Source of the DNA: Deltaproteobacteria bacterium
GTDB taxonomy: Bacteria; Desulfobacterota; Anaeroferrophillalia; Anaeroferrophillales; Tharpellaceae
Direction of reading: 5' to 3'
Length of the DNA stretch: 64,000 bases
NCBI GenBank assembly: GCA_016938065.1
Contig: JAFGVI010000063.1
Location: 2,623 to 66,622, forward strand
The stretch's first letter is position 1, and each line of letters opens with the position of its first letter. The position numbers were made by a program, and so were the translations under genes. A model generated the notes under the pieces. That model had not been told where the DNA came from, made no database searches, and saw only the letters and a program-made list of their open reading frames with translations. Shown piece by piece: positions 2,776-18,328 of this stretch.

Positions 2776-3025
2776 CTTTCCTCTCTGATTTTCAGCTGCT
2801 CAACACCGGTTTCCGTAAAAGGGAGTTAACTTTCGCGGGCCGAGCTCTAAAACATCTCCCCCTTTTTGTCAACCGCCAAATCCGGACCCGGAACAGCCAC
2901 CTAAGTATACATCGCCGACAAAAAAAAGTTGCATCATCAGGCAAAAGAAAGTATTGGAGGCAGTCAGTAAAGCCTTAAAGCCTTTAAAAAAACAACATCA
3001 GCATCAGAAAAGAAGGGGAGAACTC

Positions 3026-4057
3026 ATGCTTAAACTAGCCAAACTCAGTTCGAGATTCGCAGCCTTGCTCGCCCTGGCCGGAATTCTGTTGACCCTGGTC
3101 CCCGTAGCCGGAGCCGAAAGTCTGACTTTAAACTATGCAAACTTTCCTCCGGCACCAACGTTCCCCTGCGTACAGATGGAACGCTGGGCCAAGGAGGTGG
3201 AGAGCCGCAGTCATGGCCAGATCAAGGTTATGACCTTTCCGGGAGGTACGCTGCTGGGAGCCAAGAACATGCTCGACGGCGTCAAGAAAGGCATCGCGGA
3301 TATCGGCTGTTTCTGCCCGCCCTACCTGCCGGGACGCTTTCCGCTGCTTGAAGGGGCTGACCTGCCGGTAGGCTTTACCAGCGCCGCCGTGGCCAGCGCC
3401 ACCCTCTGGGATCTCTATGAAAAATACCGGCCGGAAAGCCTCAACGGGGTTAAAGTCCTGACCATGTTTACCTGTGCTCCGGCCAATCTGATGCTCAAAA
3501 CAGCAGGGACGACCCTGGCCGACTTAAAAGGCATGGAGATTCGAGGCACCGGCATTTCGGGCCGCTATCTCGAAGCGATGGGAGCCATACCGGTAGCCAT
3601 GCCGATGTCAGCAGTGCCCGAAGCCCTGCAGAAAGGAGTGGTCAAAGGGGTTTTTTCCTCTCTGGAAATCATGCAGGATTTCAAGTTTGCCGAGCTCTGC
3701 GATCATGTTACCATCATCAATGGCCCGACAACTTCTTTTGCGGTCGTGATGAATCTCGAAAAATGGCAGGGATTAAGCCCGGAGATCCAGAAAATATTCA
3801 ATGACCTGGGTCGCGAACAGGCCCTCTGGACCGGCAACTATGAAGACAACCATGTCAAAGAAGCCCTGGCCTGGTCAGAGAAAACTCATCAGGTCAAAAT
3901 CAACTCCATCGCCCCGGCGGAAAAAAGCGTTGTCAGCGAAAAAGTCCGCTTCATGACCGATGCCTACCTCAATCAGACCGCCAAAGCGGGACTGCCGGGC
4001 CGCGAATTTCTTGAAGACCTTATGACCTTCAAAGCCAAATATGAAAAAGAGTTCTGA
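3026..4057 (+). CDS. TRAP transporter substrate-binding protein (DctP family)
   Basis: ATG at 3026 preceded by aggggag. Signal peptide MLKLAKLSSRFAALLALAGILLTLVPVAGA. Followed by small and large TRAP permease genes. Confidence 0.8.
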   Translation: MLKLAKLSSRFAALLALAGILLTLVPVAGAESLTLNYANFPPAPTFPCVQMERWAKEVESRSHGQIKVMTFPGGTLLGAKNMLDGVKKGIADIGCFCPPYLPGRFPLLEGADLPVGFTSAAVASATLWDLYEKYRPESLNGVKVLTMFTCAPANLMLKTAGTTLADLKGMEIRGTGISGRYLEAMGAIPVAMPMSAVPEALQKGVVKGVFSSLEIMQDFKFAELCDHVTIINGPTTSFAVVMNLEKWQGLSPEIQKIFNDLGREQALWTGNYEDNHVKEALAWSEKTHQVKINSIAPAEKSVVSEKVRFMTDAYLNQTAKAGLPGREFLEDLMTFKAKYEKEF

Positions 4058-4075
4058 TTTGAAAACAACCTGCAG

Positions 4076-4588
4076 ATGAACCAAGACCGCTTTCGTAATC
4101 TTCTCCTCAAAGGCCAGCAGCTGAAACTGCTGCTGGCCGGCATTGCCCTGCTCCTCATGGTGCTTATCGGCTTTGCCAACGTGGTCTGCCGCAACCTCTG
4201 GCAACCGCTGAAAGGATCTTTTGAAATAATCGGCTATCTCGGAGCCGTTACTGTCGCTCTCTCCCTGGGCAGTGCGCAACTCGAAAAAAAACACATCATC
4301 GTTGATATCATAACGCGGCACTACACTCCCGGCTGGGGCCGCCTGACTTCAGCAATCGGCCACTTGTGCAGCGCTCTGTTCTTCATTTTGGCGGCCTGGC
4401 AGACCTGGGCCTGGGCTGACAACATCCGCCTGACCGGAGAAACCTCGGAAACCCTGCACCTCATCTTTTACCCTTTTATCTACCTCACCGCTTTCGGTTT
4501 TGCTTTTCTCGCTCTGGTTCTGCTGTCAGACCTGAGCAGAAGCCTCAAAAACCAGAAAGCGCACCCACCGAGCCGGCATGAGTCCTGA
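4076..4588 (+). CDS. TRAP transporter small permease (DctQ-like)
   Basis: 170 aa with four hydrophobic segments. Sits between the DctP-like and DctM-like genes and overlaps the next gene by 11 nt. Confidence 0.7.
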   Translation: MNQDRFRNLLLKGQQLKLLLAGIALLLMVLIGFANVVCRNLWQPLKGSFEIIGYLGAVTVALSLGSAQLEKKHIIVDIITRHYTPGWGRLTSAIGHLCSALFFILAAWQTWAWADNIRLTGETSETLHLIFYPFIYLTAFGFAFLALVLLSDLSRSLKNQKAHPPSRHES

Positions 4589-5882
4589 AACTATCGGCAT
4601 TATCGGCATCATCATGATGATGGCGGCGATGCTTCTGCTCCAGATTCCAGTCGGTTTTGCCATGGCGCTTACCGGTTTTGCCGGTGTCGCCTGGCTACTC
4701 TCTTTAGATGCCGCCCTGGCGCTGATCGGTAACGACCTGTGGACGACTTTTTCCTCCTACGGTCTGACTATCATCCCGCTCTTTATCTTCATGGGCCATA
4801 TCTGTTTTCACAGCAACGTCAACAACCGACTCTACAGCTGCGCCTACGCCTGGCTGGGGGCAACGCGCGGCGGCCTGGCCATAGCAACCGTTGCGGCCTG
4901 TGCCGGCTTTGCCGCGATCAGCGGCTCCAATACCGCCACCGCCGCCACCATGACCTCGGTAGCCCTTCCTTCAATGCGCAAATACGGCTACAATCCCACC
5001 CTGATTACCGGTTCCATCGCGGCCGGATCAACCCTGGGAGTGGTCATTCCACCAAGTATCGTACTGGTGGTCTACGGCATCTACACCGGCCAATCGATCG
5101 CCAAACTTTTTTTCGGCAGCATCATTCCCGGTCTGATCCTTGCGGCTCTACTGGTTCTGACCGTCGTTATCATCTGTCGCCGCCACCCGGACTGGGGCCC
5201 GCCCGGAGAGAAAACCACCTTCAAGGAAAAAATATTATCCCTCAAAGGCTCTTTCGAAATGCTGCTCCTCTTCGGCCTGGTCATGGGCGGTCTCTTCGGG
5301 GGTTTTTTCACACCCAGTGAAGCCGGAGCCGTAGGCTCATTCTGCGCTGTGGTGTTAAGTTTTTTCCGACGCTCCCTCTCATATAAAAAGTTCCTTGCCG
5401 CCATCAATGATACCTTGAAAATTTCAAGTTTTATCATCGTCATCATTGCCGGAGCTATCATTTTCGGCCGTTTTCTCGCCCTCACCCGGCTCCCCTACGC
5501 CATCGCCGCGGGTGCCGCCGGGCTTCCGGTCGCCCCCGCAGTTATTCTCTGGATCGTTATTCTTTTTTTTATCATCGGCGGCGCCATCATGGATGCCCTG
5601 GGCCTGCTCCTGATTACCATCCCCATTTTCTACCCGCTGGCCGTAAAACTCAACTTTGATCCCATCTGGTTCGGCGTTCTGATTACCATCGTCACAACCA
5701 TGGGCGCCATCACGCCGCCGGTCGGCGTCAACGCCTACGTCGTCGCCGGCATGGCCGAAGATATTCCCCTCTCAACCATCTTTAAAGGCATCGCCTATTT
5801 TCTGCCGACCTACATCATTACCATCATTCTGATCGAAATCTTCCCGCAACTGATCCTCGGACCCGCCGCAGCGGTCTTTTAA
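4578..5882 (+). CDS. TRAP transporter large permease (DctM-like)
   Basis: 434 aa, polytopic membrane protein of typical DctM size in the canonical P-Q-M gene order. Confidence 0.85.
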   Translation: MSPETIGIIGIIMMMAAMLLLQIPVGFAMALTGFAGVAWLLSLDAALALIGNDLWTTFSSYGLTIIPLFIFMGHICFHSNVNNRLYSCAYAWLGATRGGLAIATVAACAGFAAISGSNTATAATMTSVALPSMRKYGYNPTLITGSIAAGSTLGVVIPPSIVLVVYGIYTGQSIAKLFFGSIIPGLILAALLVLTVVIICRRHPDWGPPGEKTTFKEKILSLKGSFEMLLLFGLVMGGLFGGFFTPSEAGAVGSFCAVVLSFFRRSLSYKKFLAAINDTLKISSFIIVIIAGAIIFGRFLALTRLPYAIAAGAAGLPVAPAVILWIVILFFIIGGAIMDALGLLLITIPIFYPLAVKLNFDPIWFGVLITIVTTMGAITPPVGVNAYVVAGMAEDIPLSTIFKGIAYFLPTYIITIILIEIFPQLILGPAAAVF

Positions 5883-6226
5883 CCGGTAACCCAGGCGTTA
5901 AGCCCGTCTTCAACCTGACGCATCAGAAAATTCAGGGTCTCAATCCGGCCGGAACTTTTCGCCTCTCTTTCCATCTCTTTAAAAAGTTCGGCCAGGTGAG
6001 CCAGTTGCGGACCGCTGAAATTATTGAAAGTGCCCTTTAAAGCGTGGGCAAAGAAGGCAACATCGGACAACCCGGCGCCGACGACAGCCCGGCGTAATGG
6101 AGGAAGGTACTCGGTTAAGGTCTCACAAAGCGCCTCGACAACCTCAACCCCCTCCTCCGGACCGAAACCCATTAAAACCAGATCATCACCTAGAAGCTTA
6201 TTTAAAAACTCTCGATCAATTTTCAC
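5879..6226 (-). CDS. Stand-alone histidine phosphotransfer (Hpt) domain protein
   Basis: 115 aa containing the HALKGTFNNF motif (HxxKG phospho-His signature). Divergent from the hybrid kinase gene. Confidence 0.7.
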   Translation of the reverse strand: MKIDREFLNKLLGDDLVLMGFGPEEGVEVVEALCETLTEYLPPLRRAVVGAGLSDVAFFAHALKGTFNNFSGPQLAHLAELFKEMEREAKSSGRIETLNFLMRQVEDGLNAWVTG

Positions 6227-6243
6227 AATTTCACTCCTTTATT

Positions 6244-6269
6244 ATAATTGTACCCGATAATTGTACCCG
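6244..6269. repeat. Perfect tandem direct repeat, 2 x 13 bp (ATAATTGTACCCG)
   Basis: Read directly at 6244-6256 and 6257-6269, in the divergent Hpt / hybrid kinase intergenic region. Confidence 0.9.
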
Positions 6270-6383
6270 CAAATCAGAACTTTGCAGTTGTTCGCAAACC
6301 CCACATAGTGTATGATCGCTGGTGTGGTGAAAAACCATAGCAAAAAAACACTTAACGTGCCAACAAATTAACCGTAATTTGCC

Positions 6384-8966
6384 ATGAAGCTTCAACAAAA
6401 GATAAATATTTCGATCATCACAGCCTTCTTCCCTGTGATGATTACTATCTTAACCATCTCCTTTTACGCCAAGGAGCAGGCCCGCAAAACTTTTTTCCAG
6501 GAAGCTGAAACAACCGCGAATCTGGTTGATTTCGCCTGTCAGCAAGAGATCAGAAAGCTTGATCTGGCAATCAAGGCAGTGCTCAGTGACGACTCACTGG
6601 CAACCAGTTTTCACTATGATCTTAAAAATACACTTAACTTCCGCTGTCGGTCATTAAGTAAAGAATTCGGCCTGACCCTGCTCGCTTTTTTCACCCAGAA
6701 CGGCACCCTCTCCTCTTTTTACGCACCGCCGGTACAGAAAACTGCGGCAGAAGCTGAAAATGAGCATAAAATCTCTCTCCTGCTTAAAACCCTGCAACTC
6801 CCTCACAGCGACGCCAGCAATCAGACCCTGGCCACCATCAACGATCAGCTCTATCTTCTCTGCAGAGCCCCTCTGGTACTGACTGACGATGGCATGGTGG
6901 GCTCTTTTGCTTTCGTCATCCCCTTTCCTTCAGAAACTTTTTTCAATGATATCTACGCCAACTCCTCAGGTACCGTTGAAGTTGCCTTCTGGCGTGGAAC
7001 TGAACTGTTAGCCGGCAGTCCCACCATGATCGCCGCGCCGGACTACAGACGCCAGCGCCCAACGCAAAAAAAACGGGCCCTGCGCCTTGCAAACGGATCA
7101 TCCTGGGCGGGCATCAGCTACCCCCAGCTCGAACTTGCGGCAACCACTGGCATTGTCGATCTGGTCTCTGAAATTATGATCAACACGACCCCGGAAGAAG
7201 AGCGGATCAACCAGATCATCACCCTGACCGTGGCCACCGTCCTGGTGGCTATCTTAATTTTTTCGTTAATCCTCTTTACTCTCGGTCACTACATTGTCAA
7301 ACCACTGAGAAGCATAACACAGGCTACGAAAGATGTTATTGAAAAAGGCACCCTGCCCGAATACAAACCCATGCAACGCCGCGATGAAATCGGCTATCTC
7401 TGGAGTGTCGGAGCCAAAATGGCGGCAACCCTGCATCAGGAAAAAATCAGAGCGGAAGAGGCCAACCGCGCCAAATCAGAATTTCTGGCCAACATGAGTC
7501 ACGAAATCCGCACCCCTTTAAACGCAATTTTAGGCTTCACCCAGATCCTGCAGGAACACCCCCTGAATCAGGAAGAAAAAACCTATTTAAATTACATCAG
7601 CGAATCCGGCCACCATCTTTTACAGATCATCAACGAGATTCTTGATATTGCCAAAATTGAAAGCGGCTCAATGCTGCTTGAAGAACTCGATTTCGACCTC
7701 AACCAGCTTCTGGATGAGGTCGCCGTCATCATTCGCGGTCACATGAAACCTGAAATTGAGTATCGCCTGCCCCGGGTTCAAGGGCTGCCGCGGGTCTGCG
7801 GTGACGAGCTTAAACTCAAACAGGTTCTTATCAATCTTATCAACAACGCCAGCAAATTCACCGACAAAGGCACGATCGAAATTCAGGTTACAGTCAAGGA
7901 GATGGATGAAAAGGCCCTCGAACTGCTCTTTTTTGTCCGCGATACCGGCAAAGGAATTGCTCTGGAAAACCAGCCCCTGGTATTTCAGAGTTTCACTCAG
8001 GAAGACTCTTCCATTACCCGTAAATATGGCGGTACCGGCCTGGGCCTGACGATTTCCAAAAAAATCGTCGAACTCATGGGCGGTCGCATGTGGCTCGAAA
8101 GTGAGCCCGGAAAAGGCACCACCTTCTATTTTACCGTGCGGCTGGCGCGTTCCCATAAACCCGCCCCCAGCCCCGCATTCAACCCCGCCAGCAATCTGAT
8201 GATCCAGGATTGCAAAATTGCGGTAGTTGACGACAATCCGCTTAACATCTTGATTATTGATAAGATTCTGCGCCCTTATGGAGCCCGGGTTTCCGGATTT
8301 GCAACCGCTGAGGAATTTCTCAACCACCTGAAAAACATTGCCCCCGCAGACTGCGACCTGATTATCAGTGACATTCAAATGCCTAAAACCTCGGGCATCG
8401 AGCTGCTGACCCTCTTGCGCGCTCAGGGCTGCAAAACACCAGTGATTGCCGCATCATCCGAAAATATTCTGAAACAGAACCTGCAGAACAAATTTGAGGC
8501 CTTCATCTACAAACCGATTATTAAAGATGAACTCTTAAACGCAATTGCCGGGGTGCTGGCGCAACCGACTCCTGGCCAACCCGCCCCCAGCGACAACAGC
8601 CTTTATCAGAATCTGCGGATTCTTGTGGCCGAAGACAACAAAATCAACCAGATGCTGATTAAAAAGATTTTGGGCGGTTTAAAACCCCGGGTTCTTACCC
8701 TCAAGGCCGACGGCCGGGCAACGCTGGAGGAAGCCCTGAAAGAACCTTACGATCTGGTTTTAATGGATATCAATATGCCGATTATGGATGGTCTGACGGC
8801 GACCCGGGAAATCCGTAAAACCCTGCCGGAGTTGCCGATTTACGCACTGACCGCCAACACCATGTCCGGCGATCGCGAAAAATGCCTTAACGCCGGCATG
8901 AACGGTTTCCTGGAAAAACCCATTAATCCTGATCATCTGAAAGAAATCCTGCAACGCTATGTCTGA
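6384..8966 (+). CDS. Hybrid sensor histidine kinase (2 TM + periplasmic sensor, HAMP, HisKA, HATPase, two receiver domains)
   Basis: H-box SHEIRTPLNAILG, N-box NLINNASKFT, G-boxes DTGKGI and GGTGLGLTISKKIVELMGG. Receiver 1 has ...LIISDIQMPKTSG... and receiver 2 has ...LVLMDINMPIMDG.... Confidence 0.9.
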   Translation: MKLQQKINISIITAFFPVMITILTISFYAKEQARKTFFQEAETTANLVDFACQQEIRKLDLAIKAVLSDDSLATSFHYDLKNTLNFRCRSLSKEFGLTLLAFFTQNGTLSSFYAPPVQKTAAEAENEHKISLLLKTLQLPHSDASNQTLATINDQLYLLCRAPLVLTDDGMVGSFAFVIPFPSETFFNDIYANSSGTVEVAFWRGTELLAGSPTMIAAPDYRRQRPTQKKRALRLANGSSWAGISYPQLELAATTGIVDLVSEIMINTTPEEERINQIITLTVATVLVAILIFSLILFTLGHYIVKPLRSITQATKDVIEKGTLPEYKPMQRRDEIGYLWSVGAKMAATLHQEKIRAEEANRAKSEFLANMSHEIRTPLNAILGFTQILQEHPLNQEEKTYLNYISESGHHLLQIINEILDIAKIESGSMLLEELDFDLNQLLDEVAVIIRGHMKPEIEYRLPRVQGLPRVCGDELKLKQVLINLINNASKFTDKGTIEIQVTVKEMDEKALELLFFVRDTGKGIALENQPLVFQSFTQEDSSITRKYGGTGLGLTISKKIVELMGGRMWLESEPGKGTTFYFTVRLARSHKPAPSPAFNPASNLMIQDCKIAVVDDNPLNILIIDKILRPYGARVSGFATAEEFLNHLKNIAPADCDLIISDIQMPKTSGIELLTLLRAQGCKTPVIAASSENILKQNLQNKFEAFIYKPIIKDELLNAIAGVLAQPTPGQPAPSDNSLYQNLRILVAEDNKINQMLIKKILGGLKPRVLTLKADGRATLEEALKEPYDLVLMDINMPIMDGLTATREIRKTLPELPIYALTANTMSGDREKCLNAGMNGFLEKPINPDHLKEILQRYV

Positions 8967-8975
8967 TGCGAAATA

Positions 8976-11003
8976 ATGAGACAATCGGTTCCCACTTCCG
9001 ACATTATCAATGACCTCCTCGCCGAAAACTGGCAATTACGCTGGCAGGTTCTTACAATCTTTTACCAGACGCAAATCATGTTGCGTGATTTTGCCCGTTC
9101 GTCACGCGAGTACAAACAGGCCAGCGCTTTATGCTCTGAGATGGCGGGCCGCCTTAACGGCCCGAGCGATGTCAATCTCAATCTGGTTCTGACCGCAGCC
9201 TGGTTTCTGGGAGGCAGCTCTTTTCTGCTCCTGGCCCTAGAAAAGATCGGAGTGACTGACCCGGAAACTGGCGACCAGGAAACCATCCTCCTGAAAAAAC
9301 CGCTTATCAGCAACAATTCTAAAATCTCTTTTTTTGACTATTTTCACTCCCTTTTGCGCCGCAACAAAGCCGTTGACGCAACCACGGCAACTGCCGGCAG
9401 AATTTTCCCCCCGGAAATCTGCCTGACCCTGCTCTGTGCCATTGCTGAAGCCGAACCCCGCCGCAGGGGGCTCGCCCTTTTGAGAAACCATTACCCGAAA
9501 GTTTTCTTCAATGAGCTGCTCCTCGGAGATAAGCTTTCGCTCCTGCAGGAAAAACCTGAACTGCTGGACTTTATCGCCCCCCCGCTCTCCTCCGCGGCTG
9601 AAATTATTATCACGGAGATGGTATCTGAACTGCTGCACGCCGACAATCCCGCCAGGGACGTGGCCGTTGCTGCGGCAGGACGCCTAAAGCTTGAAAAATG
9701 CCGTCCGCAATTACGCAAACTTCTCGATATCAGCCCGTTTGCGGCAGGCGCTCTAGCTCGTCTCGGCGACGAAGAAGGCTGCAGAAAATTACTTAAAGCC
9801 GGCAAATCATGGCGCCGCAAGATACGCACGGCCGTACTGGCCGACCTCGCGGGCTGTAACGACCCGGCAGCCCTTGATCTCCTGGAAAACCGGGCGCGTC
9901 AGGGCAGTCTTGATGAAAAAAAAGAAGCTTTAGCGGCTTTGGGAGAAAGGCGCAGTCCCGAAGCACTGCGCACCATCTGCGCCCTCCTTAAGCAGACCAG
10001 CCGGACAGATGAGCTTAATCTGCTCCTTCAGACCCTGTCGGGCACACCCTGGCCGGGAGAAAGTCGAGCGGCCGCCAACCAGCTGGCCCGCCTGGCTGAA
10101 AACCTTGAGCTCTACCCGAAACTGTTGCAGGCGCTGGCAGCCCTTGAATATGGCGAAGAGTGGGGCGATATTTTAGATAAAATCAAAAGCCCCGTTCTAA
10201 AACCGCACTACCGGGAAATCGCCCTGTTCATGACCCGCTTCGCTGAGCAACCCAAAATCCGCCAGCGCCTGATAGCTCTAACCAGAGACATTGACTGGTC
10301 TTTTTCCTATCGCCTGCTGAATCTTCTAACTCCGGAGCTGAAACGCACCGACATTCCGCAGTTGCTCACCCTGCTTGACGACCGCGAAGAGGGTCGGGCC
10401 CTGACCATTAAAGAACGTCTGACCAAAGGCCAGGACCTTGAACGCCTCCCGGAGGCTCTGGCCGAATTTTTCGGCATCCATCCGGAGATAGCCAATTTGA
10501 CCATCGACCGGCTCCTGACCGCTGTCATCTGCGGCAACCAGCCCACCAGCGAAGAACTCTTTGCCATCCTGGCCCGCCAACCATCGGGTTTAAGTGAACT
10601 GCTGCTCGGTTACCCTCCCGGCAGCGATTACAAGGCCGATGCCGAGCAGTATTTCCCCTTGCTCATGGCCACGCACTGGCTTGCTCAAATCGAGGTTGAC
10701 GGCAGCGATTGTTTTGCGATAGTAATACACCGGACCCGGCGTTACAGCGGATTTTTCCGCCAAAGCATCATTGCGGCTCTCAACCTTCTGCTGGATCGAA
10801 AAAACGAGCTTGACAATTTCGACTGCCTGCCTGTTCTAAACAGGATTATTGACTTTATCCGCGGGCGACCCCACTATGAGGCGCTGCGCGAGAAGCTCCT
10901 GTTGCGCATCACCCGCATCACCCGCAACTGCAGGGAGCTTAAGGTCTACAATGAAGCCTCGCAAACCAGGGAACTGCGCATTTTCAAGGTAAAGAAACTC
11001 TAA
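8976..11003 (+). CDS. HEAT-repeat (PBS-lyase-type) protein, function unknown
   Basis: 675 aa, helical and Leu/Ala-rich with repeats such as AAGALARLGDEEGCRKLL, NDPAALDLLENRARQGS and KKEALAALGERRSPEALRTI. Starts 9 nt after the kinase stop. Confidence 0.55.
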   Translation: MRQSVPTSDIINDLLAENWQLRWQVLTIFYQTQIMLRDFARSSREYKQASALCSEMAGRLNGPSDVNLNLVLTAAWFLGGSSFLLLALEKIGVTDPETGDQETILLKKPLISNNSKISFFDYFHSLLRRNKAVDATTATAGRIFPPEICLTLLCAIAEAEPRRRGLALLRNHYPKVFFNELLLGDKLSLLQEKPELLDFIAPPLSSAAEIIITEMVSELLHADNPARDVAVAAAGRLKLEKCRPQLRKLLDISPFAAGALARLGDEEGCRKLLKAGKSWRRKIRTAVLADLAGCNDPAALDLLENRARQGSLDEKKEALAALGERRSPEALRTICALLKQTSRTDELNLLLQTLSGTPWPGESRAAANQLARLAENLELYPKLLQALAALEYGEEWGDILDKIKSPVLKPHYREIALFMTRFAEQPKIRQRLIALTRDIDWSFSYRLLNLLTPELKRTDIPQLLTLLDDREEGRALTIKERLTKGQDLERLPEALAEFFGIHPEIANLTIDRLLTAVICGNQPTSEELFAILARQPSGLSELLLGYPPGSDYKADAEQYFPLLMATHWLAQIEVDGSDCFAIVIHRTRRYSGFFRQSIIAALNLLLDRKNELDNFDCLPVLNRIIDFIRGRPHYEALREKLLLRITRITRNCRELKVYNEASQTRELRIFKVKKL

Positions 11004-11017
11004 GGTTAAAGGTACTG

Positions 11018-12535
11018 ATGGCTAAAACAGTCTCTATCTTCTTTAACAATGTCAACCTGCAGATCTATAGTCAGGATGAGGAGAGCGGGCGGATTGAATC
11101 GGTTCATCTGGGCGAAATTTCGACCACAGTCGAGATTAACACCCCCAAGGGTCCGGAGAAGATCCATCTGGTCCCCGCCATGATCTGTTACGCTGACCGT
11201 ATCTATTGCGGCCAGGAGGTTTTCAGCCAGAAAAAATTCAGCTCCCCGGCCACCTTCAAATACATGAAGCAGTATATGGCCAAGAGGCAATTTCTGCCCC
11301 GGATTATCGGTGACCAGGAGATCAGTACCTTCCAGGCCGCCACCGATCTGCTCATCAATATCATCGACCGCATTCATGATCTCTACGGCAAGGATCAGGT
11401 GGCGATGATCGTCTTTATCGTCGAACCCCTTAACTTTTCGGTTTTCGCCGCAACGATTGAAGAGTTCTGTCTGCGTATCGGCCTGATCAACTACAAGGTT
11501 GTCGACGAGGCGGTATGCGCGCTGCTGGCCTACGATCTGGCCAACCAGATCGACCAGCACCTGATCTATCTCCACTTCGGCTACACGACCATTGATCTCT
11601 ACCTGGTCAAAATTGTTGAAAGCAGCCGCGAACCCCGGCTTCAGAGCGTCATCATCTGCAGTATGCATAAAAATTACGGCGGAGCCGACATCGACAAGGT
11701 TATTCAGAACTACTTTGCCGACAAAGTCCCCCTCAATATGAAAAAAGCCCGCGAGATCAGAGGTAAACTCAATATAAATCCGCAATACCGGGAAACTTTT
11801 AATGACGTCGAACTCAGCCTGGAACGCAGCGAGCTGCACAAGATGCTTGACCAGAAGGGTTATGGCCGGGAATTGCAGGTTCTTTTACGCGACCTTTTCG
11901 ACCTTGCTTCAGGTTTCGGGGTTACCTATGAAAATGTCGGTTATGTTCTCGGTACCGGCCTGAGCCTGCCGACCCATTACTATAAAGACATTATGAAAAG
12001 TTTTTTCGGGCCGAAATTCCTGAGCCAGAAAGCGCATGAAGCCATTCCTATCGGGGCCTTGCGCTACCTCAAAAAAGGAGGGCTGCAGGCGACGATCAAG
12101 GCCAATTACGCCATCCGCAGCCGCACCGCCAAAGGAGACGGCTACCGCTACGACATTATCGTCCCCAAAGGTACCCCCTACCCCACCCAGAACGGCATCA
12201 CCAGTATCGTCGCCAACGGCTTCTTTGCCGGACAGCTGGAGGTCGAACTTGATATCTTCCGCATGGATCGTCCCGAAAGCAGCTGCGACCGGGAAATCGT
12301 TATTGACGATACCGGACGCATGCAGCTCGAAGAAAACCTGGGCGACGAACAGCAGTCATTTATCAATGAGGCGCGCCCGGAGATTATTCCGCTCGACCCA
12401 CCGGCTCTGGATAATGAACAGCGCCTGGAGATCACTTTCGATATCAGTTTAAATTGTGATCTGCTGATTACCGTTAAAGACCTGCGCCGTAATCAGACGA
12501 TCTGGAAACGAAAAAAATCGGTGCGTCTGGAATGA
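11018..12535 (+). CDS. Hsp70/DnaK-fold protein with substrate-binding beta domain, no helical lid and degenerate nucleotide-binding motifs
   Basis: Segments align by eye to DnaK: VVDEAVCALLAYDL vs IINEPTAAALAYGL, GGADIDKVIQNYF vs GGEDFDSRLINYL, AHEAIPIGALRYL vs PDEAVAIGAAVQG, RLEITFDISLNCDLLITVKDLRRNQ vs [25 protein letters not shown]. The phosphate loops are altered (see finding). Confidence 0.75.
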   Translation: MAKTVSIFFNNVNLQIYSQDEESGRIESVHLGEISTTVEINTPKGPEKIHLVPAMICYADRIYCGQEVFSQKKFSSPATFKYMKQYMAKRQFLPRIIGDQEISTFQAATDLLINIIDRIHDLYGKDQVAMIVFIVEPLNFSVFAATIEEFCLRIGLINYKVVDEAVCALLAYDLANQIDQHLIYLHFGYTTIDLYLVKIVESSREPRLQSVIICSMHKNYGGADIDKVIQNYFADKVPLNMKKAREIRGKLNINPQYRETFNDVELSLERSELHKMLDQKGYGRELQVLLRDLFDLASGFGVTYENVGYVLGTGLSLPTHYYKDIMKSFFGPKFLSQKAHEAIPIGALRYLKKGGLQATIKANYAIRSRTAKGDGYRYDIIVPKGTPYPTQNGITSIVANGFFAGQLEVELDIFRMDRPESSCDREIVIDDTGRMQLEENLGDEQQSFINEARPEIIPLDPPALDNEQRLEITFDISLNCDLLITVKDLRRNQTIWKRKKSVRLE

Positions 12536-12741
12536 ATAAAAAATCACAGAACCAGAACCTGTCAACCGGCCCCGGCACAAGCATGGACCAGGAACCGCAC
12601 ATTCACATCAGGATTACGGCAGACGGTGAAATCTGCGCCTGGGGCCTGGATCGGAAAGGCGAAGAGCGGATTTTCAGCTTGACCGGCAATCAGGATTTGA
12701 TTAATAAATGCAAAGCAATGTCCTATAATTTATGCGGTTAA
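12532..12741 (+). CDS. Small hypothetical protein (69 aa), translationally coupled to the Hsp70-like gene
   Basis: Its ATG overlaps the upstream stop (ATGA at 12532-12535). No recognisable motif. Coding status rests on coupling and operon position. Confidence 0.4.
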   Translation: MNKKSQNQNLSTGPGTSMDQEPHIHIRITADGEICAWGLDRKGEERIFSLTGNQDLINKCKAMSYNLCG

Positions 12742-12771
12742 ATCCGACATCTCAGGAGCAGGGGAGCGGCA

Positions 12772-14262
12772 ATGACTTTTCTTGATCGTTTCAACACCAC
12801 AATCCGCAGCAACCATTCACTGATCAACATTGTCACCTACGAAGAGGCCCGTTTTCTTTCGATGATGGGCGAGTCGCCTCTTTTCAAAGACAAGAATATT
12901 ATCATGTGGGATCTCGGCAATGGTTTTAAAGCAATCAAAGGTGAGTTGGGCGGCATTAAAAACAAAGATCGCGCCGACCCCATCAACTGCCTCTCCGAAA
13001 TCGGCAAATTCACCGGCAATGCGATCTTCATCCTGCGAGATTTCCACCTCCATTTTCGGGAAAGTATTATTTTACGCTCGCTAAGAAACCTCAATCATGA
13101 TTTACAGTTCACCAAGAAAACTATCATTCTGACCACCCCGACAGCGACCCTTCCCGTCGAGCTGCGCGAAGATGTCTGCCAGATCGAATTAGAACTGCCC
13201 GGCTATCCTGAAATTGAAAAAGAGCTTGACAGTGTTGTTGTCAGTGCCGCCCAGGGAAAACCGCCAACCCCGCAACTGAAAGAGAAGATTGTTGAATCTA
13301 CCCTTGGCCTCTCGATGGTCAATATCAAGAATCTTTTTTCTAAAATCATCATCACCCACGGCTCAATTGATGAGCGCGCAATTGAAATAATTCTCCAGGA
13401 GAAGCGCGGCATCATCAAAAAAGGGGAAATTCTTGAGTTTTTTCCGGTACAGGAGAGCCTCAACGATATCGGCGGCCTTGAAAATCTTAAGGCCTGGCTG
13501 CGCAAACGAAGTCAGGTTTTCACTCACAAAGCCAAAGATTACGGCCTCCCCGCACCCAAAGGCATTTTAATTATAGGCATTCAGGGAACTGGTAAAAGCC
13601 TGACTGCCAAGGCGACGGCCGGCCTGTGGAAACTGCCCCTGCTACGCATGGATCTGGGCAAGGTTTTCGGCAGTCTGCTGGGGGAGTCGGAACAGAACCT
13701 GCGCCAGGCGATTCACCTGGCGGAAACCATCTCTCCCTGCATTCTCTGGGTTGATGAACTTGAGAAAGCTTTCGCCGGCAGTTCGGGTTCAGCCGGCGAC
13801 GGCGGTACCTCGGCCCGCATTCTCGGAACCTTTTTGACCTGGATGCAGGAAAAAACCAAGCCGGTTTTTATCATCGCCACCGGCAACGATGTGGCCCAGC
13901 TTCCCCCGGAACTGATGCGCAAAGGACGTTTTGACGAAATCTTTTTCGTTGATCTGCCCTCAGCCTCGGAGCGTCAGGCAATCTTTAAGGTTCTGCTCGA
14001 AAAAGTGCGTCCCGTGATTCGCCAGTTCGATCTGGAAAAACTGGCGGCCGCGACCACCGACTACAGCGGAGCTGAAATCGAACAGATTATCTACGACGCC
14101 ATGTTCAACGCCTTTGACGACAATCAACGCGAATTTACCGAAGCTGACATTCTCGCCAGCGTCAGTGAAATCATACCAATATCACGCTTGATGAGTGAGA
14201 AAATCGACGCACTTAAAGCCTGGGCGGCCCAACGCACCCGCAAGGCCAACAGTGAGTTATAA
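12772..14262 (+). CDS. AAA+ ATPase, single C-terminal AAA module with ~250-aa N-domain (Ycf46-like architecture)
   Basis: Walker [14 protein letters not shown], Walker [11 protein letters not shown], sensor/Arg region [23 protein letters not shown]. 496 aa. Confidence 0.85.
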
Positions 14263-14307
14263 TCATCTCAAGCAACAGCTTTAAACGCTTGCAAATGGAG
14301 AGCAGCC

Positions 14308-14685
14308 ATGTCCCACTTCACCAAGATTAAAAGTAAGATAGCCGACTTAGTCTTTCTCAAAAAAGCAATCAGCGATATGGAGCTGGAGTATCAGGAGGGC
14401 AAATTGAAAGCCAAAGGCTGGCTCTGGAAAAAAGAGAAAGCCGAACTTATCATCCCCACCAAAAGTGGCTACGATATCGGCTTTCGCTTTAATGGTGAAA
14501 CCTACGATGTTGTCGCTGACTGGGACTCCATTAAGGACGTTGACCAGACAACCTTCATGAACACCCTGAACCAGCGCTACGCCTACAACGTGGTCAAAGA
14601 CACTCTGACGCAGCAGGGTTTCCTGCTCACTAATGAGGAAAATAAAAGCGGTACCCTGAATTTGACCTTGAGCCGCAATCTATAA
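14308..14685 (+). CDS. DUF1257 (Ycf35-like) family protein
   Basis: 125 aa. The N-terminus MSHFTKIKSKIADLVFLKKAISDMELEY matches my memory of the DUF1257/ycf35 consensus (MSHF..IKT.I.D...L..AL). Not verified by search. Confidence 0.55.
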   Translation: MSHFTKIKSKIADLVFLKKAISDMELEYQEGKLKAKGWLWKKEKAELIIPTKSGYDIGFRFNGETYDVVADWDSIKDVDQTTFMNTLNQRYAYNVVKDTLTQQGFLLTNEENKSGTLNLTLSRNL

Positions 14686-14717
14686 AACTGCCTGCGAAAC
14701 CTACGGGAGCTATAAAA

Positions 14718-14915
14718 ATGGAAAAAATCGATATCTCTATAACGGAAGATGGAGCTGTCAACCTGCAGCTGGCCGGCTTCGAGGGAGGAAAATGCCTCGA
14801 AATAACCAAGATCCTGGAAACTCTGCTCGGCAATGAAATTGTGGAACGAAATCTGACCAGTGAATATTACACTGCTGAAAACGTTAAAATTGAAGAAAAG
14901 CTGCCCGGCTCTTGA
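14718..14915 (+). CDS. DUF2997-like small protein
   Basis: 65 aa. ISITEDGAVNLQLAGFEGGKCLEITKILETLLG...TSEYY resembles the DUF2997 pattern and has the usual position next to DUF1257/AAA+ genes. Not verified by search. Confidence 0.5.
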   Translation: MEKIDISITEDGAVNLQLAGFEGGKCLEITKILETLLGNEIVERNLTSEYYTAENVKIEEKLPGS

Positions 14916-14997
14916 GTGTAAAAAAACCTGCAGCTTCGCGCCCCTGCACCATAAATTAAAAAAAACCAATTTTTTTTCGAAAAATTTTGCAAATAAC

Positions 14998-15025
14998 TTG
15001 ACTTGCAGCACCAGTCAGCTATAAT
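14998..15025 (+). promoter_or_regulatory. Near-consensus sigma70-type promoter
   Basis: TTGACT (14998-15003), 16-nt spacer, TATAAT (15020-15025), about 85 nt upstream of the ATG at 15108. Confidence 0.45.
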
Positions 15026-15107
15026 AGCATTATCAATATATCTGAACGTTTTTTTCGAGCTGCAAAGCACTAAAATTCACATAATTTTAATTTTCCGGAG
15101 AGCAGAG

Positions 15108-15527
15108 ATGAGCCCCAGTCAGATACGGAGTTACAGTCGCAGTTACAGCTGCCAGAACAATGATTCAGCCGATATTTTTGAACTCATCCAGAGCATTCCA
15201 ACCCTGACCAAGATAGGGGCTGTCTGCTTGGTGCTGGGTAAGTTCATGGGCATCATGGCTATTCCGGCGGCTTTTATCCCCTCTCTCAACATTCTCGTTA
15301 TCCCCCTGATTTTCGCTTGGGGATCTTTGGTTTTTTGCGCCATCGCTCTCTGCTCGGTTGACCACTTTAAAAAGAAAAGAGTTGAGTCAAGAAAGCAGAC
15401 GGTCACTGATATAACCGCACTGTTGCAGGGATCATCAGCATTAAGTGAGGAGGAGACGCTTGAAGAACTAGGCCAGGAAGTGCTGGAATCAGCGGTTATC
15501 ATTCCTTTTGCTGTCGGCCAACGTTAG
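15108..15527 (+). CDS. Small integral membrane protein, unknown function
   Basis: ATG at 15108 with ggagagcagag upstream. Hydrophobic segments IGAVCLVLGKFMGIMAIPAAFI and LVIPLIFAWGSLVFCAIALC. Has its own promoter and terminator. Confidence 0.5.
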   Translation: MSPSQIRSYSRSYSCQNNDSADIFELIQSIPTLTKIGAVCLVLGKFMGIMAIPAAFIPSLNILVIPLIFAWGSLVFCAIALCSVDHFKKKRVESRKQTVTDITALLQGSSALSEEETLEELGQEVLESAVIIPFAVGQR

Positions 15528-15563
15528 AACGAACCCCGAACAAAACTGTCTGCGGACATTGAC

Positions 15564-15600
15564 AAAGCACTCGCATTTATTTGCGAGTGCTTTGTTATTT
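15564..15600 (+). terminator. Rho-independent terminator
   Basis: 12-bp stem aaagcactcgca / tgcgagtgcttt, loop tttatt, then gttattt. Confidence 0.75.
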
Positions 15601-15831
15601 GATTCATGACTTCCCATCTGACCATCACAGCAACCGAAACGGAAAAAACTCCTCCGCCAAAAAAACATCGCCTCAGTCCTGGCTGTGAACCACCTTGTAA
15701 GCATACGCCGAAAACCCCTCAATCCAGTTACAATAACCATCAAAAACAAAAAACATAGTCTTCTGATACAGGAAATAATGGGTTTGCTCCTGTTTTTCGT
15801 TGACTATATAACTCAATTAATGTAATTTAAT

Positions 15832-15845
15832 GTGTCATATGACAC
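15832..15845. promoter_or_regulatory. Perfect 14-bp palindrome GTGTCATATGACAC (candidate operator)
   Basis: Read directly. Lies ~77 nt upstream of the ATG at 15922 and just downstream of a TTGACT...TAATTT promoter-like pair. Confidence 0.35.
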
Positions 15846-15921
15846 CAGGCTATTTTTGGCAACATTCGCCGGTGCAAAAACCAGAAAGCGCAGGCGGACT
15901 ATTTAGACAGAGGATTTTTAA

Positions 15922-18266: not shown

Positions 18267-18328
18267 TAAACCATAAAATCACTTATTTATTGAATGTTGC
18301 AAATATTTTAACCTTCGGAGGTAGCTCG

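Follow-up and report, generated by a model that had tools for sequence, protein, structure and literature searches.

The six genes at positions 8976-14915 of the window (the whole stretch analysed here, 64,000 nucleotides from a Deltaproteobacteria bacterium) may encode a dedicated two-arm protein-remodelling machine, with a phosphorelay as a local add-on. We propose this reading with close to, but still short of, even confidence. The preliminary description of this DNA had proposed an uncharacterised chaperone/unfoldase-like module, and the genes from the HEAT-like scaffold to DUF2997 are indeed conserved as a set. They keep their order in every related locus long enough to show it, the gene order of the module being conserved across 17 related loci. 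This six-gene order, together with the recurrence of the core set in unrelated phyla, is beyond chance. The AAA+ ATPase is the hub of the module, and the DUF1257 and DUF2997 proteins are its core partners. No publication describing this composition was found in the literature searched, in agreement with the earlier statement that no such system was known to its author.

The features of the locus are listed in Table 1. The gaps computed from the ORF coordinates between the seven same-strand genes are 9, 14, -4, 30, 45 and 32 nt. The eight ORFs and these gaps match exactly what had been described, including the divergent Hpt gene and the ATGA overlap of orf69 with the Hsp70-like gene. The promoter-like site proposed beyond position 14915 is also present; sites with 10 of 12 matches were found within the operon as well. 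The first strong terminator-like hairpin on the plus strand past the module lies 3' of the gene for the small membrane protein. The module is flanked by genes for a TRAP transporter and multihaem cytochromes. As had been noted, no output-domain response regulator, protease, nuclease or J-protein was seen in the flanks, and no client, protease or J-protein gene is encoded near the module. The reported absence of a nucleotide exchange factor holds for the window, where no GrpE was found near the module, and is lineage-specific, since other versions of the module carry GrpE.

Table 1. Features of the module and its immediate surroundings in the window.
Feature	Position	Strand	Remarks
Stand-alone Hpt phosphotransfer protein, 115 aa	5879..6226	-	Pfam Hpt; divergent from the operon
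Membrane hybrid histidine kinase, 860 aa	6384..8966	+	HisKA, HATPase_c, two Response_reg stretches (Pfam)
HEAT-like repeat scaffold, 675 aa	8976..11003	+	Sub-threshold HEAT_2, alphaRep, PADLOC HEAT-ARM
Lidless Hsp70-like protein	11018..12535	+	Nucleotide-binding domain and beta substrate-binding domain, without helical lid
orf69, 69-aa protein	12532..12741	+	Lineage-specific; invariant C-terminal Leu-Cys-Gly
Ycf46-type AAA+ ATPase	12772..14262	+	Pfam AAA and AAA_lid_3, above threshold
DUF1257 (Ycf35-family) protein, 125 aa	14308..14685	+	Pfam 85.9 bits
DUF2997 protein, 65 aa	14718..14915	+	Pfam 49.6 bits
Sigma-70-like promoter match TTGACT-16-TATAAT	14998..15025	+	11/12 matches; ahead of the next gene
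Small two-helix membrane protein, 139 aa	15108..15527	+	Lineage-conserved downstream; hydrophobic hairpin
Strong intrinsic-terminator-like hairpin	15560..15597	+	16-bp stem, then T run

In the Pfam check of the domain calls, Hpt, the hybrid kinase, AAA, DUF1257 and DUF2997 passed the gathering score. HSP70 and HEAT fell below it, and both are backed by other evidence given below.

The AAA+ protein appears, from its sequence and predicted model, to consist of a degenerate D1-like N-domain (residues 1-225) followed by an active AAA domain of the classic clade. The Walker A/B motifs already recognised in the preliminary description are intact in D2, as are sensor 1 and the arginine fingers. The D1-like domain lacks a P-loop and instead conserves E24-E25-R27 and D90-F-H92. 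When superposed on the D1-D2 tandems of p97, Cdc48, Drg1 and Rix7, the predicted model (pLDDT 84.8) gives TM scores of 0.62-0.70, with about 0.7 for substrate-engaged p97/Cdc48 tandems. The predicted fold is that of a Cdc48/p97-like tandem in which the first domain is dead. Assignment to the Ycf46 family agrees with a full-length identity of 42% to a Pseudanabaena AAA protein whose gene adjoins DUF1257. Pore loop 1 reads S-L-L-G in the window; it is Leu-Leu/Val-Gly, not aromatic, and it resembles p97 D1 more closely than a threading D2. Because of this aliphatic, p97-D1-like loop, processive unfolding by the AAA+ protein is uncertain.

DUF1257, the ycf35 family, is paired with DUF2997 in cyanobacteria (PMC4284462). 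Its N-terminal MSHFT and a D-I-G-F motif are invariant. No solved structural neighbour was found for the predicted DUF1257 model (pLDDT 92.3). In DUF2997, a G-x-x-G-x-x-C motif is invariant in the alignment across phyla. The DUF1257 gene adjoins the AAA+ gene in most contexts, and DUF2997 co-occurs with both across contexts.

The Hsp70-like protein scored 18.4 bits against the Pfam HSP70 cut-off of 20.6. The call stands despite this, because the protein shows full-length homology to Pfam-HSP70 proteins (E 2e-18) and aligns with DnaK. The DnaK alignment stops past SBD-beta, which bears out the description of an Hsp70 fold with a beta substrate-binding domain and no lid. The family comprises 252 clusters at E<=1e-30, and its consensus retains the ATPase motifs, unlike the window lineage, in which all members (36/36) lack the residues corresponding to D8 and D194 of DnaK as well as the adenosine-motif GG. 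Since these catalytic residues are lost, a chaperone ATPase cycle is unlikely for the protein of the window lineage.

For the neighbouring scaffold, HEAT_2 reached 20.6 bits, below the Pfam cut-off of 27.7. AlphaRep structures in the PDB match residues 213-352 (E 2e-4), the PADLOC HEAT-ARM model matches at 4e-5, and NblB also supports the call. The 675-aa HEAT scaffold proposed earlier is thus upheld only for about residues 213-385. Identity among relatives is 54-72% for this protein versus 81-92% for the Hsp70-like protein; the scaffold is the fastest-evolving large component. Of ten long members of the Hsp70-like family, seven are fusions of the lidless Hsp70 with HEAT_2 and one is a fusion with WD40. 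These fusions elsewhere tie the two window genes together, and the scaffold is the predicted partner of the Hsp70-like protein.

The reading frame of orf69 has 18 homologues in related loci, with 1768/1536/3696 differences at the three codon positions, and on this pattern it is a real coding gene. It shows weak similarity to DUF2997 (hhalign E 0.003, probability 11%). Homologues of the 139-aa membrane protein come after DUF2997 in most lineage loci, in two copies in L015 and L022, and this protein is a possible accessory of the module. The distant contexts L024 and L028 also have small 2-TM ORFs, which overlap the Hsp70 gene at its end; they are analogous, not established homologues.

Across genomes, the core recurs in unrelated phyla in shuffled orders: AAA+, DUF1257 and DUF2997, joined by a lidless Hsp70-like protein and by one with HEAT or WD40 repeats. 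It was found in Thermodesulfobacteriota, Chloroflexota and Actinomycetota, on a cyanobacterial plasmid, in a Nanoarchaeia MAG and on an IMG/VR viral contig. The module is far more widespread, viral contigs included, than the preliminary description implied. GrpE and an NrdG-like radical SAM protein are added in many relatives. Linkage on the AAA+ side was assessed in eight contexts reached through AAA+ homologues, a small sample of distant contexts in which L024/L028 and L025/L029 are related pairs. DUF1257 and DUF2997 are present in six of the eight, an Hsp70-family gene in five (L024, L025, L026, L028, L029) and a HEAT or WD40 protein also in five. The nearest Hsp70-like homologue outside the lineage, from Dactylosporangium (24% identity), has a 42%-identical AAA+, DUF1257, DUF2997 and the radical SAM protein alongside. 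A Pseudanabaena galeata plasmid (RefSeq) carries grpE, Hsp70, DUF1257, DUF2997, AAA and WD40 together, and the IMG/VR contig carries DUF1257, the radical SAM gene, Hsp70, AAA and DUF2997. Since gene order differs between contexts, the linkage points to selection rather than to shared ancestry of a segment. On viral contigs the AAA+ gene is mostly alone or with DUF1257, DUF2997 or the radical SAM gene. An Hsp70-like gene occurs in only one of 80 viral loci, so the Hsp70 arm is optional.

The preliminary description had called the operon phosphorelay-headed. This is correct in the window, where the first gene encodes a hybrid kinase with two receiver domains (Pfam, above threshold) and the Hpt protein, in whose translation an HALKG motif is visible, scores 28.9 bits against a cut-off of 24.6. 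It does not hold as a conserved trait, because the kinase is absent or replaced in close relatives. Among lineage loci, only the window, L003 and L014 have the hybrid kinase. L016, L014 and L022 have PAS kinases of other kinds, some accompanied by a 194-aa receiver protein, and no signalling gene is present at the module in L004, L007, L010, L012 and L015. We read the hybrid kinase and Hpt as a local regulatory add-on to the module, specific to this lineage. The output of the phosphorelay could, as had been suggested, run through protein-protein contacts.

It is worth noting that the kinase and Hpt could instead form an independent two-component system that merely adjoins the module, the 'operon' being two unrelated units. 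We regard this as a serious possibility, though one clearly below even. Histidine kinases are abundant in the phylum of the window. Of the 11 lineage loci that extend into the upstream region, seven lack the hybrid kinase, and Hpt is missing from several; no two-component genes stand beside the distant versions of the module, and no receiver domain is detectable by Pfam in any module protein. However, directly upstream of HEAT, and on its strand, different relatives have one of three kinds of two-component genes: a hybrid kinase with Hpt, a PAS kinase plus the 194-aa receiver, or two PAS kinases. None of them has a DNA-binding output. The kinase gene is separated from the HEAT-like gene by 9 nt in the window. 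Hpt homologues adjoin the module in L001, L005 and L014, including loci that lack the kinase; in the close relatives L001 and L005, Hpt has been kept and the kinase is gone. The Synechocystis ycf46 operon is, moreover, reportedly regulated by Hik35 (PMC7496141).

A biological-conflict system, either anti-phage defence or a phage counter-measure, is an unlikely reading. The HEAT/WD40 proteins would be invader sensors, the Hsp70-like and AAA+ proteins a threshold or activation device, and small membrane proteins or other partners the effectors. The patchy spread over phyla and domains with shuffled gene orders, the much faster evolution of the repeat scaffolds and the small 2-TM proteins of several module versions are consistent with this, as are a restriction-modification system (type I) and RadC beside L026 and the position of the Pseudanabaena copy on a plasmid amid toxin-antitoxin genes, split by an AbiEii-like ATPase. 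Predicted GTPase-centric conflict systems likewise contain a dedicated Hsp70 with GrpE and repeat proteins in mobile, patchy clusters (Kaur et al. 2020, PMC7159879), and the IetAS/SgiAT AAA+-protease pairs combine a SpoVK/Ycf46/Vps4-type AAA+ with repeat proteins in similar clusters. IetA models match our AAA+, but the match is limited to the generic AAA domain. The systems of PMC7159879 are built on GTPases or MoxR-vWA, both missing here, as are the tubulin components and the IetS/SgiT protease, and neither group includes DUF1257 and DUF2997. DUF1257, DUF2997, the Hsp70-like protein and orf69 all remained unmatched in PADLOC, and no recognisable domain of a nuclease, protease, NADase or pore-forming toxin turned up. 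Synteny of the module in the window lineage is stable, amid housekeeping genes and not in a variable island, and cyanobacterial chromosomes and plastid genomes retain DUF1257/Ycf35 and Ycf46.

Less probable still is a core of radical or redox chemistry, in which an NrdG-like glycyl-radical-type activase or a ferredoxin would have DUF2997 and/or DUF1257 as its target or partner, and the AAA+ and Hsp70-like proteins would assemble, load or recycle the redox-active protein. NrdG-like radical SAM genes, which have no obvious fit with a pure chaperone model, lie inside module versions C, D, E and F and in 7 of 80 viral loci, matching TIGR02491 at 72-118 bits, below the cut-off of 126. The invariant Gly and Cys residues of DUF2997, the clustering of cyanobacterial DUF2997 and ycf35 with the ferredoxin gene fed7 (PMC4284462), and peroxiredoxin, flavodoxin and desulfoferrodoxin genes flanking the module in L022/L023 and L024 point the same way; the best NCBIfam match of the window Hsp70-like protein is the Fe-S chaperone HscA, but its 34 bits fall far short of the cut-off of 743. 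The radical SAM gene is absent from the window and from all 17 lineage loci, and in the window the activase would come in trans or be dispensable. Neither DUF1257 nor DUF2997 has an evident canonical glycyl-radical motif (RVxG[YF]), and no structural neighbour of the DUF1257 model backs any chemistry.

Among known systems, cyanobacterial and plastid Ycf46 (AAA+) and Ycf35 (DUF1257), including the slr0373-slr0374-slr0376 / Synpcc7942_0416-0418 operon, share these two families with the module and, in cyanobacteria, the pairing of DUF1257 with DUF2997. The chromosomal cyanobacterial version seen here lacks the Hsp70-like, HEAT, orf69 and phosphorelay genes, and its Ycf46 has Tyr in the pore loop where the window has Leu. 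The cyanobacterial ycf46 operon is induced by stress and has no assigned function (PMC7496141; bioRxiv 10.1101/2025.07.21.665879); it offers phenotypes (CO2 use, stress, KaiC interaction) and no mechanism. The type II unfoldases Cdc48/p97/VAT resemble the window AAA+ in the predicted D1-D2 fold, the classic-clade D2 with its motifs and the reliance on small partner proteins; the window protein differs in lacking the D1 P-loop and the N-terminal double-psi barrel and in its aliphatic pore loop, and neither a ubiquitin-like tag nor a proteasome partner could be identified here. In Hsp70-ClpB/Hsp104 disaggregases, too, an Hsp70-family protein is coupled to an AAA+ motor, here genetically and with GrpE in some module versions. 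However, the window AAA+ does not belong to the ClpB type, neither an M-domain nor a J-protein was seen, and the module Hsp70 is lidless, has a HEAT/WD40 partner and is catalytically degenerate in the window copy. Yeast Ssz1 of the ribosome-associated complex is an atypical, non-cycling Hsp70. It resembles the window protein in its degenerate ATPase and truncated substrate-binding region, and its structural role within a larger complex is like the one proposed here for the window protein, but the two are related only at the level of the Hsp70 superfamily, and the window partners are HEAT and AAA+ rather than a J-protein on the ribosome.

In the remodelling machine that we prefer, the motor arm would be the Ycf46-type AAA+, with its nucleotide-dead D1-like domain stacked on the active D2. 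It is most likely a hexamer that would spend ATP on pulling at a client protein or remodelling it, and DUF1257 and DUF2997 are most likely ring-docking cofactors or adaptors, or its dedicated substrate. The client-handling arm would comprise the lidless Hsp70-like protein and the HEAT scaffold, the latter replacing the missing helical lid, with orf69 as a lineage-specific extra subunit. Formation of this complex, the identity of its client and the direction of hand-over are what we infer from the genes and models described above. In other lineages, the lidless Hsp70 retains its ATPase motifs and comes with its own GrpE; in the window lineage, it is probably a passive client-holding adaptor, and the AAA+ would be the sole energy source. 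The hybrid kinase and Hpt would then place this machine under a lineage-specific regulatory input, possibly without a DNA-binding regulator.

The eight genes from Hpt to DUF2997 named in the preliminary description were recovered by the ORF list at identical positions. The tight packing claimed for them was also found, with intergenic gaps of 9, 14, -4, 30, 45 and 32 nt from the kinase through DUF2997. In the Pfam domain check, Hpt, the hybrid kinase, AAA, DUF1257 and DUF2997 all passed their gathering scores: the AAA+ protein reached 99.8 bits for AAA and 37 bits for AAA_lid_3, DUF1257 (PF06868) reached 85.9 bits against a cut-off of 22.2 over profile positions 1-102 of 103, and DUF2997 (PF11211) reached 49.6 bits against 24.1. 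The H-box (SHEIRTP in the kinase), the acceptor Asp (DIQMP and DINMP in the receivers) and HxxKG (HALKG in Hpt) are visible in the translations. The HSP70 and HEAT calls were below the Pfam scores (PF00012, 18.4 versus 20.6 bits; HEAT_2, PF13646, 20.6 versus 27.7 bits), although homology to the Hsp70 superfamily is clear.

Features in and around the operon (positions in the window)
Feature	Position	Strand	Basis or remark
TRAP transporter, complete (DctP/Q/M)	2954-5882		Upstream of the module
Hpt	5879-6226	-	ORF list; Pfam above gathering score
Hybrid kinase	6384-8966	+	Pfam HisKA, HATPase_c and two Response_reg stretches, above gathering scores
HEAT-like protein, 675 aa	8976-11003	+	HEAT_2 below gathering score
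Hsp70-like protein, 505 aa	11018-12535	+	HSP70 below gathering score
orf69, 69 aa	12532-12741	+	ORF list
AAA+, 496 aa	12772-14262	+	Pfam AAA, AAA_lid_3
DUF1257	14308-14685	+	Pfam above gathering score
DUF2997	14718-14915	+	Pfam above gathering score
Sigma-70-like site, 11/12	14998-15025	+	Followed by the gene of the 139-aa membrane protein
Two-helix membrane protein, 139 aa	15108-15527	+	Own near-consensus promoter-like site and strong terminator
Strong terminator	15560-15597	+	After the gene of the 139-aa membrane protein
Multihaem c-type cytochromes	17367-22372		Downstream flank; MtrC/MtrF-like domains, cytochrome c7/c3; one protein of 1212 aa

A near-consensus promoter had been thought to appear only after the DUF2997 gene. 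The 11/12 site is indeed located there, but 10/12 promoter-like sites were found within the operon too. No terminator-like site lies between the DUF2997 gene and the 11/12 site, and Rfam and repeat scans of 5000-16500 in the window gave no matches. Within the lineage, the 139-aa membrane protein is conserved 3' of DUF2997, and the related loci L015 and L022 each carry two copies. At L024 and L028, two loci reached via AAA+ homologues, small ORFs with two transmembrane helices overlap the Hsp70 gene at its end; these look unrelated to the 139-aa protein. Genes for flavodoxin, peroxiredoxin (AhpC/TSA) and desulfoferrodoxin lie just 3' of the module at L022 (15270-15719), L023 (12053-13266) and L024 (11882-13089), in two independent lineages, which recalls that the ycf46 operon of cyanobacteria is reported to be induced by oxidative stress.

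When one genome per species was scanned, 19 related loci were found, all in MAGs of Thermodesulfobacteriota, including Candidatus Tharpella; their Hsp70-like proteins are 54-96% identical to the window protein. The order HEAT, Hsp70-like, orf69, AAA+, DUF1257, DUF2997 is conserved at every relative locus long enough. Identities of relatives to the window proteins were 89-96% for AAA+, 81-92% for Hsp70-like, 83-92% for DUF1257, 62-86% for DUF2997, 54-72% for HEAT and 43-75% for orf69. The differences among orf69 homologues are distributed over the three codon positions as 1768/1536/3696. The homologues (L001-L023) all carry a C-terminal Leu-Cys-Gly and share GEI..WGL..TGN motifs. orf69 is a genuine gene. 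It was considered as a possible paralogue of DUF2997, given a similar N-terminal hairpin pattern, but the similarity in hhalign was weak (probability 11%, E 0.003).

The preliminary description had called the operon phosphorelay-headed. This did not survive the comparison, in which the kinase was found outside the conserved unit and the region upstream of HEAT varied among relatives. A hybrid kinase is present there in the window and at L003; Hpt, a hybrid kinase, a solute-binding protein, a PAS kinase and a 194-aa receiver protein at L014; a PAS kinase and a 195-aa receiver protein at L016; two PAS kinases at L022; Hpt only at L001 and L005; and no signalling gene at L004, L007, L010, L012 and L015. 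Distant versions of the module showed no two-component genes. The kinase is thus not what defines the system. That kinase and Hpt are merely adjacent to the module is a reading that we regard as doubtful, yet far from negligible. Three kinds of two-component genes occur repeatedly before the module in relatives, and in view of this recurrence signal control stays under consideration. None of these genes has a DNA-binding output, and no terminal output response regulator was found within the genes flanking the window operon, as had been remarked before. At L014 (6787-7371) and L016 (2957-3544), the receiver protein gene overlaps and directly precedes the HEAT gene; its product consists of a receiver domain and a tail of about 80 residues without domain assignment. 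This protein is a candidate link between the signalling genes and the module.

The AAA+ protein was further analyzed by alignment and structure prediction. In its D2 domain, Walker A and B, sensor 1 and the arginine fingers are intact, RKGRFD is present, and each of these positions is invariant across 64 homologues. Residues 3-487 align collinearly over the full length with residues 21-515 of a Pseudanabaena AAA+ at 42% identity; the label Ycf46-type refers to this comparison, the Pseudanabaena protein being encoded beside ycf35/DUF1257. The predicted model (pLDDT 84.8) matches the D1-D2 tandems of p97, Cdc48, Drg1, Rix7 and NVL from end to end (Foldseek; TMq 0.62-0.70, 530-570 columns), and because of this structural match residues 1-225 are predicted to be a D1-like domain. 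No P-loop was found in these residues; E24, E25, R27 and D90-F-H92 are conserved there instead. The protein resembles Cdc48/p97 in its two stacked AAA domains in the predicted fold. It differs, however, in lacking a nucleotide-binding D1 and the N-terminal cofactor-binding domain, since the model begins at the D1-like domain. Pore loop 1 reads Ser-Leu-Leu/Val-Gly, and the cyanobacterial protein has Tyr-Val-Gly.

The DUF1257 proteins of Thermodesulfobacteriota, cyanobacteria and Dactylosporangium all share strictly the same residues 1-5 (window 14308-14322), Met-Ser-His-Phe-Thr. Such invariance hints that the N-terminus may have a function of its own, whether as a nucleophile, as a metal site or by engaging a pore. 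The motif D-I-G-F is likewise invariant from cyanobacteria to actinobacteria; it was considered as a glycyl-radical motif and rejected, because RVxG[YF] was not fitted on inspection. The predicted model of DUF1257 is confident (pLDDT 92.3). A fold search of the PDB gave a best E of 0.27, that is, no solved structural neighbour, and BFVD gave only two matches, both unnamed viral proteins. Sequence searches of the PDB with DUF1257 and DUF2997 gave no matches. DUF2997 is small, with an invariant G-x-x-G-x-x-C motif in the alignment, and its sequence suggests a beta-beta-alpha-beta fold. In a separate setting, a DUF1257 gene was observed on the Treponema succinifaciens plasmid pTRESU01 (8218-8625) within a contractile-tail-like cluster of gp25, baseplate J, sheath, tube and baseplate V.

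The Hsp70-like protein scored 34 bits against NCBIfam HscA (cut-off 743). Aligned to DnaK, it comprises the nucleotide-binding domain and the beta substrate-binding domain and then reaches its C-terminal end; no helical lid (SBD-alpha) was found in this alignment. The catalytic positions D8, E171 and D194 and the adenosine-motif GG were examined in DnaK numbering. The equivalents of D8, D194 and the GG motif are missing in 36/36 lineage proteins, and that of E171 is also lost in the more divergent half. The window protein carries SIFFNNVN, HFGYTTID and GTGLSL in place of the catalytic motifs, and the family consensus retains IDFGTxNT, DExTAAA, DFGGGT and VGGSSxIP. Because D8, D194 and GG are lost, we conclude that the lineage protein is a putative pseudo-ATPase.

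When 1.8 billion representatives were searched with a profile, 252 Hsp70-like clusters were obtained at E<=1e-30. Most of them are 505-560 aa long and match end to end, and the lidless architecture therefore defines a sizeable Hsp70 subfamily. Ten longer members were inspected: HEAT_2 repeats are present at the C-terminus in seven (P0304, P0309, P0312, P0329, P0337, P0348 and P0360), and a WD40 propeller in one (P0366). The repeat domain occupies the exact position of the normal Hsp70 helical lid. Because such repeats are fused to a lidless Hsp70 elsewhere, we infer that the adjacent HEAT and Hsp70-like proteins of the window (14-nt gap) may work together, the fusions being the strongest evidence. 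The window HEAT protein showed convergent weak matches at residues 213-385. Orthology with the distant scaffolds or fused domains is not claimed, the similarity being at the repeat level only. No GrpE-like or J-protein gene was found in the window neighbourhood, in agreement with the preliminary description.

The gene-neighbourhood survey showed that the core set recurs in distant genomes with a shuffled gene order. The nearest non-lineage Hsp70 relatives are Hsp70-family proteins of Dactylosporangium (23-24% identity, full length), whose neighbourhood contains DUF2997, a radical SAM protein, an AAA+ 42% identical to that of the window, two unknowns, Hsp70 and DUF1257. The AAA+ family comprises >8000 clusters at E<1e-20, from which eight contexts were picked only by contig span and taxonomic spread, a small and partly redundant sample. 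L024 contains AAA, DUF1257, DUF2997, Hsp70 and a 2-TM protein, and L028 the same with HEAT_2. L025 (Chloroflexota) and L029, identical in layout, contain AAA, HEAT/WD40, a GrpE-like ORF, Hsp70, DUF1257, DUF2997, radical SAM and WD40. L026 (Nanoarchaeia MAG) contains Hsp70, an unknown, WD40, an unknown, AAA, DUF1257, DUF2997 and radical SAM, and L030 (Omnitrophica) contains AAA, a zinc-ribbon protein, DUF1257 and DUF2997. In L032, AAA is accompanied by HEAT_2 and an S41 peptidase, and in L031 it adjoins a transposase.

Two versions were found in Pseudanabaena. The chromosome has AAA and DUF1257 only, adjoining psaAB. The plasmid pPg_01 of Pseudanabaena galeata CCNP1313 (NZ_CP112875.1, 129817-137974, RefSeq; L120) has grpE (43 bits, above threshold), Hsp70 (528 aa), DUF1257, DUF2997, AAA and WD40; the module sits among toxin-antitoxin genes, and genes for an AbiEii-like ATPase and a 167-aa product are inserted in it. 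The GrpE-like ORFs of L025 and L029 were sub-threshold in Pfam (E 3-5e-4), with a weak hhalign match to E. coli GrpE (P 0.015). They are tentatively taken as GrpE, an idea supported by the bona fide GrpE of the plasmid version.

The core was also found in viruses. An IMG/VR contig of 48 kb encodes DUF1257, radical SAM, Hsp70, AAA and DUF2997, flanked by an NAD-dependent ligase on one side and a CCA-adding enzyme on the other. Full-length AAA+ relatives (36-45% identity) are present in 276 IMG/VR contigs, many of 100-550 kb. Among the best 80 of these (L040-L119), AAA+ was alone in 61, which may be an overcount as the DUF1257 and DUF2997 HMMs used were narrow; it was accompanied by DUF1257, DUF2997 and/or radical SAM in 19, and Hsp70 was found in only one. 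PHROGs has families for all three core proteins, DUF1257 is encoded by Prochlorococcus phages P-SSM2 and P-SSM5, and shorter AAA+ relatives occur in GenBank phages (Corndog-like Mycobacteriophage, Rhizobium and others). The radical SAM protein (175-188 aa) was found at L020, L025, L026, L029 and L033 and in 7/80 viral loci, and was absent from the window lineage. It is closest to NrdG and other activases of glycyl-radical enzymes, with a score below the NrdG cut-off.

The stable core is therefore AAA+, DUF1257 and DUF2997, often with the NrdG-like protein. In cellular genomes a second arm is frequent, made up of Hsp70-like and HEAT or WD40 and, in some cases, GrpE. Since the gene order is different in every lineage, selection on the linkage itself is argued for.

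Among described systems, the stress operon with ycf46 in cyanobacteria and plastid ycf35 and ycf46 come closest; their function is stated to be unknown (PMC7496141; bioRxiv 10.1101/2025.07.21.665879). In mechanism, the module recalls Cdc48/p97 and its cofactors, but lacks an active D1 and the N-domain. It also resembles the Hsp70-ClpB partnership in pairing Hsp70 with AAA+, but it has no M-domain, J-protein or lid, and the window Hsp70 ATPase appears dead. Of IetAS, only the generic AAA domain matches IetA, and no IetS-type protease is nearby. A catalogued defence system was rejected, as PADLOC gave just generic AAA/IetA and HEAT-ARM matches. No description of the gene set was found in the full-text literature, most subscription journals excepted, whether under the names of the DUFs, their Pfam accessions, Ycf35/Ycf46 or the identifiers of genes. 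We classify the module as an AAA+/Hsp70 chaperone partnership in kind, and as a widespread, previously uncharacterised gene set.

The domain identities, linkage, fusions, predicted fold and motif loss are consistent with a two-armed protein-remodelling machine, which we regard as quite possible, if somewhat short of probable. In one arm, a Cdc48-like motor of the Ycf46 type would act together with DUF1257 and DUF2997, which would serve either as its cofactors or as its dedicated substrate. In the other, the lidless Hsp70 would form a complex with the HEAT scaffold and handle clients, having been reduced to a passive adaptor in the window lineage. The lineage-specific phosphorelay would provide the input and thus the control.

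A conflict system is an unlikely alternative, since no effector was found, the synteny in the window lineage is stable and of a housekeeping kind, and the core is retained in cyanobacteria and plastids, even though it would fit the patchy distribution, the rapid evolution of the repeat proteins and the contexts with mobile elements, and has a precedent in Hsp70/GrpE conflict systems (PMC7159879). A radical or redox function, to which the recurrence of an NrdG-like gene, the conserved Cys, the redox genes beside some copies and the fed7 linkage (PMC4284462) would point, is quite improbable, as no radical SAM protein occurs anywhere in the window lineage.

A broader proposal than the two-armed machine, and a rather unlikely one, is that Ycf46-type AAA+, Ycf35/DUF1257 and DUF2997 are the core of an ancient, mobile and previously unrecognised machine that recruits a lidless Hsp70 and often a glycyl-radical-type activase. 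Under this proposal, the machine would be common to bacteria, DPANN archaea and phages, with a reduced form in cyanobacteria and plastids; HEAT/WD40 repeats would substitute for the Hsp70 lid, with or without GrpE. If so, Hsp70 and a Cdc48-like motor would be coupled in a new way, one of the small proteins might undergo radical chemistry, and the window version would be derived, a pseudo-Hsp70 having been placed under phosphorelay control. If the two-armed model is true, the repeat scaffold would replace the lid and Hsp70 would be free to decay to a pseudo-enzyme, with the AAA+ powering the machine. If a conflict system were the case, it would be a new defence or counter-defence module family missed by current defence catalogues.

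For decades, ycf35 and ycf46 have been listed in the genomes of plastids and cyanobacteria as conserved ORFs without an assigned function. The linkage gives them concrete candidate partners: a dedicated lidless Hsp70, scaffolds of HEAT or WD40 repeats, GrpE and an NrdG-like radical SAM protein. Fuller versions are present in named, cultured carriers, Pseudanabaena galeata (plasmid pPg_01) and Dactylosporangium, which may be experimental entry points. The module linkage therefore suggests a testable role for ycf35 and ycf46, namely protein remodelling by a Cdc48-like motor.
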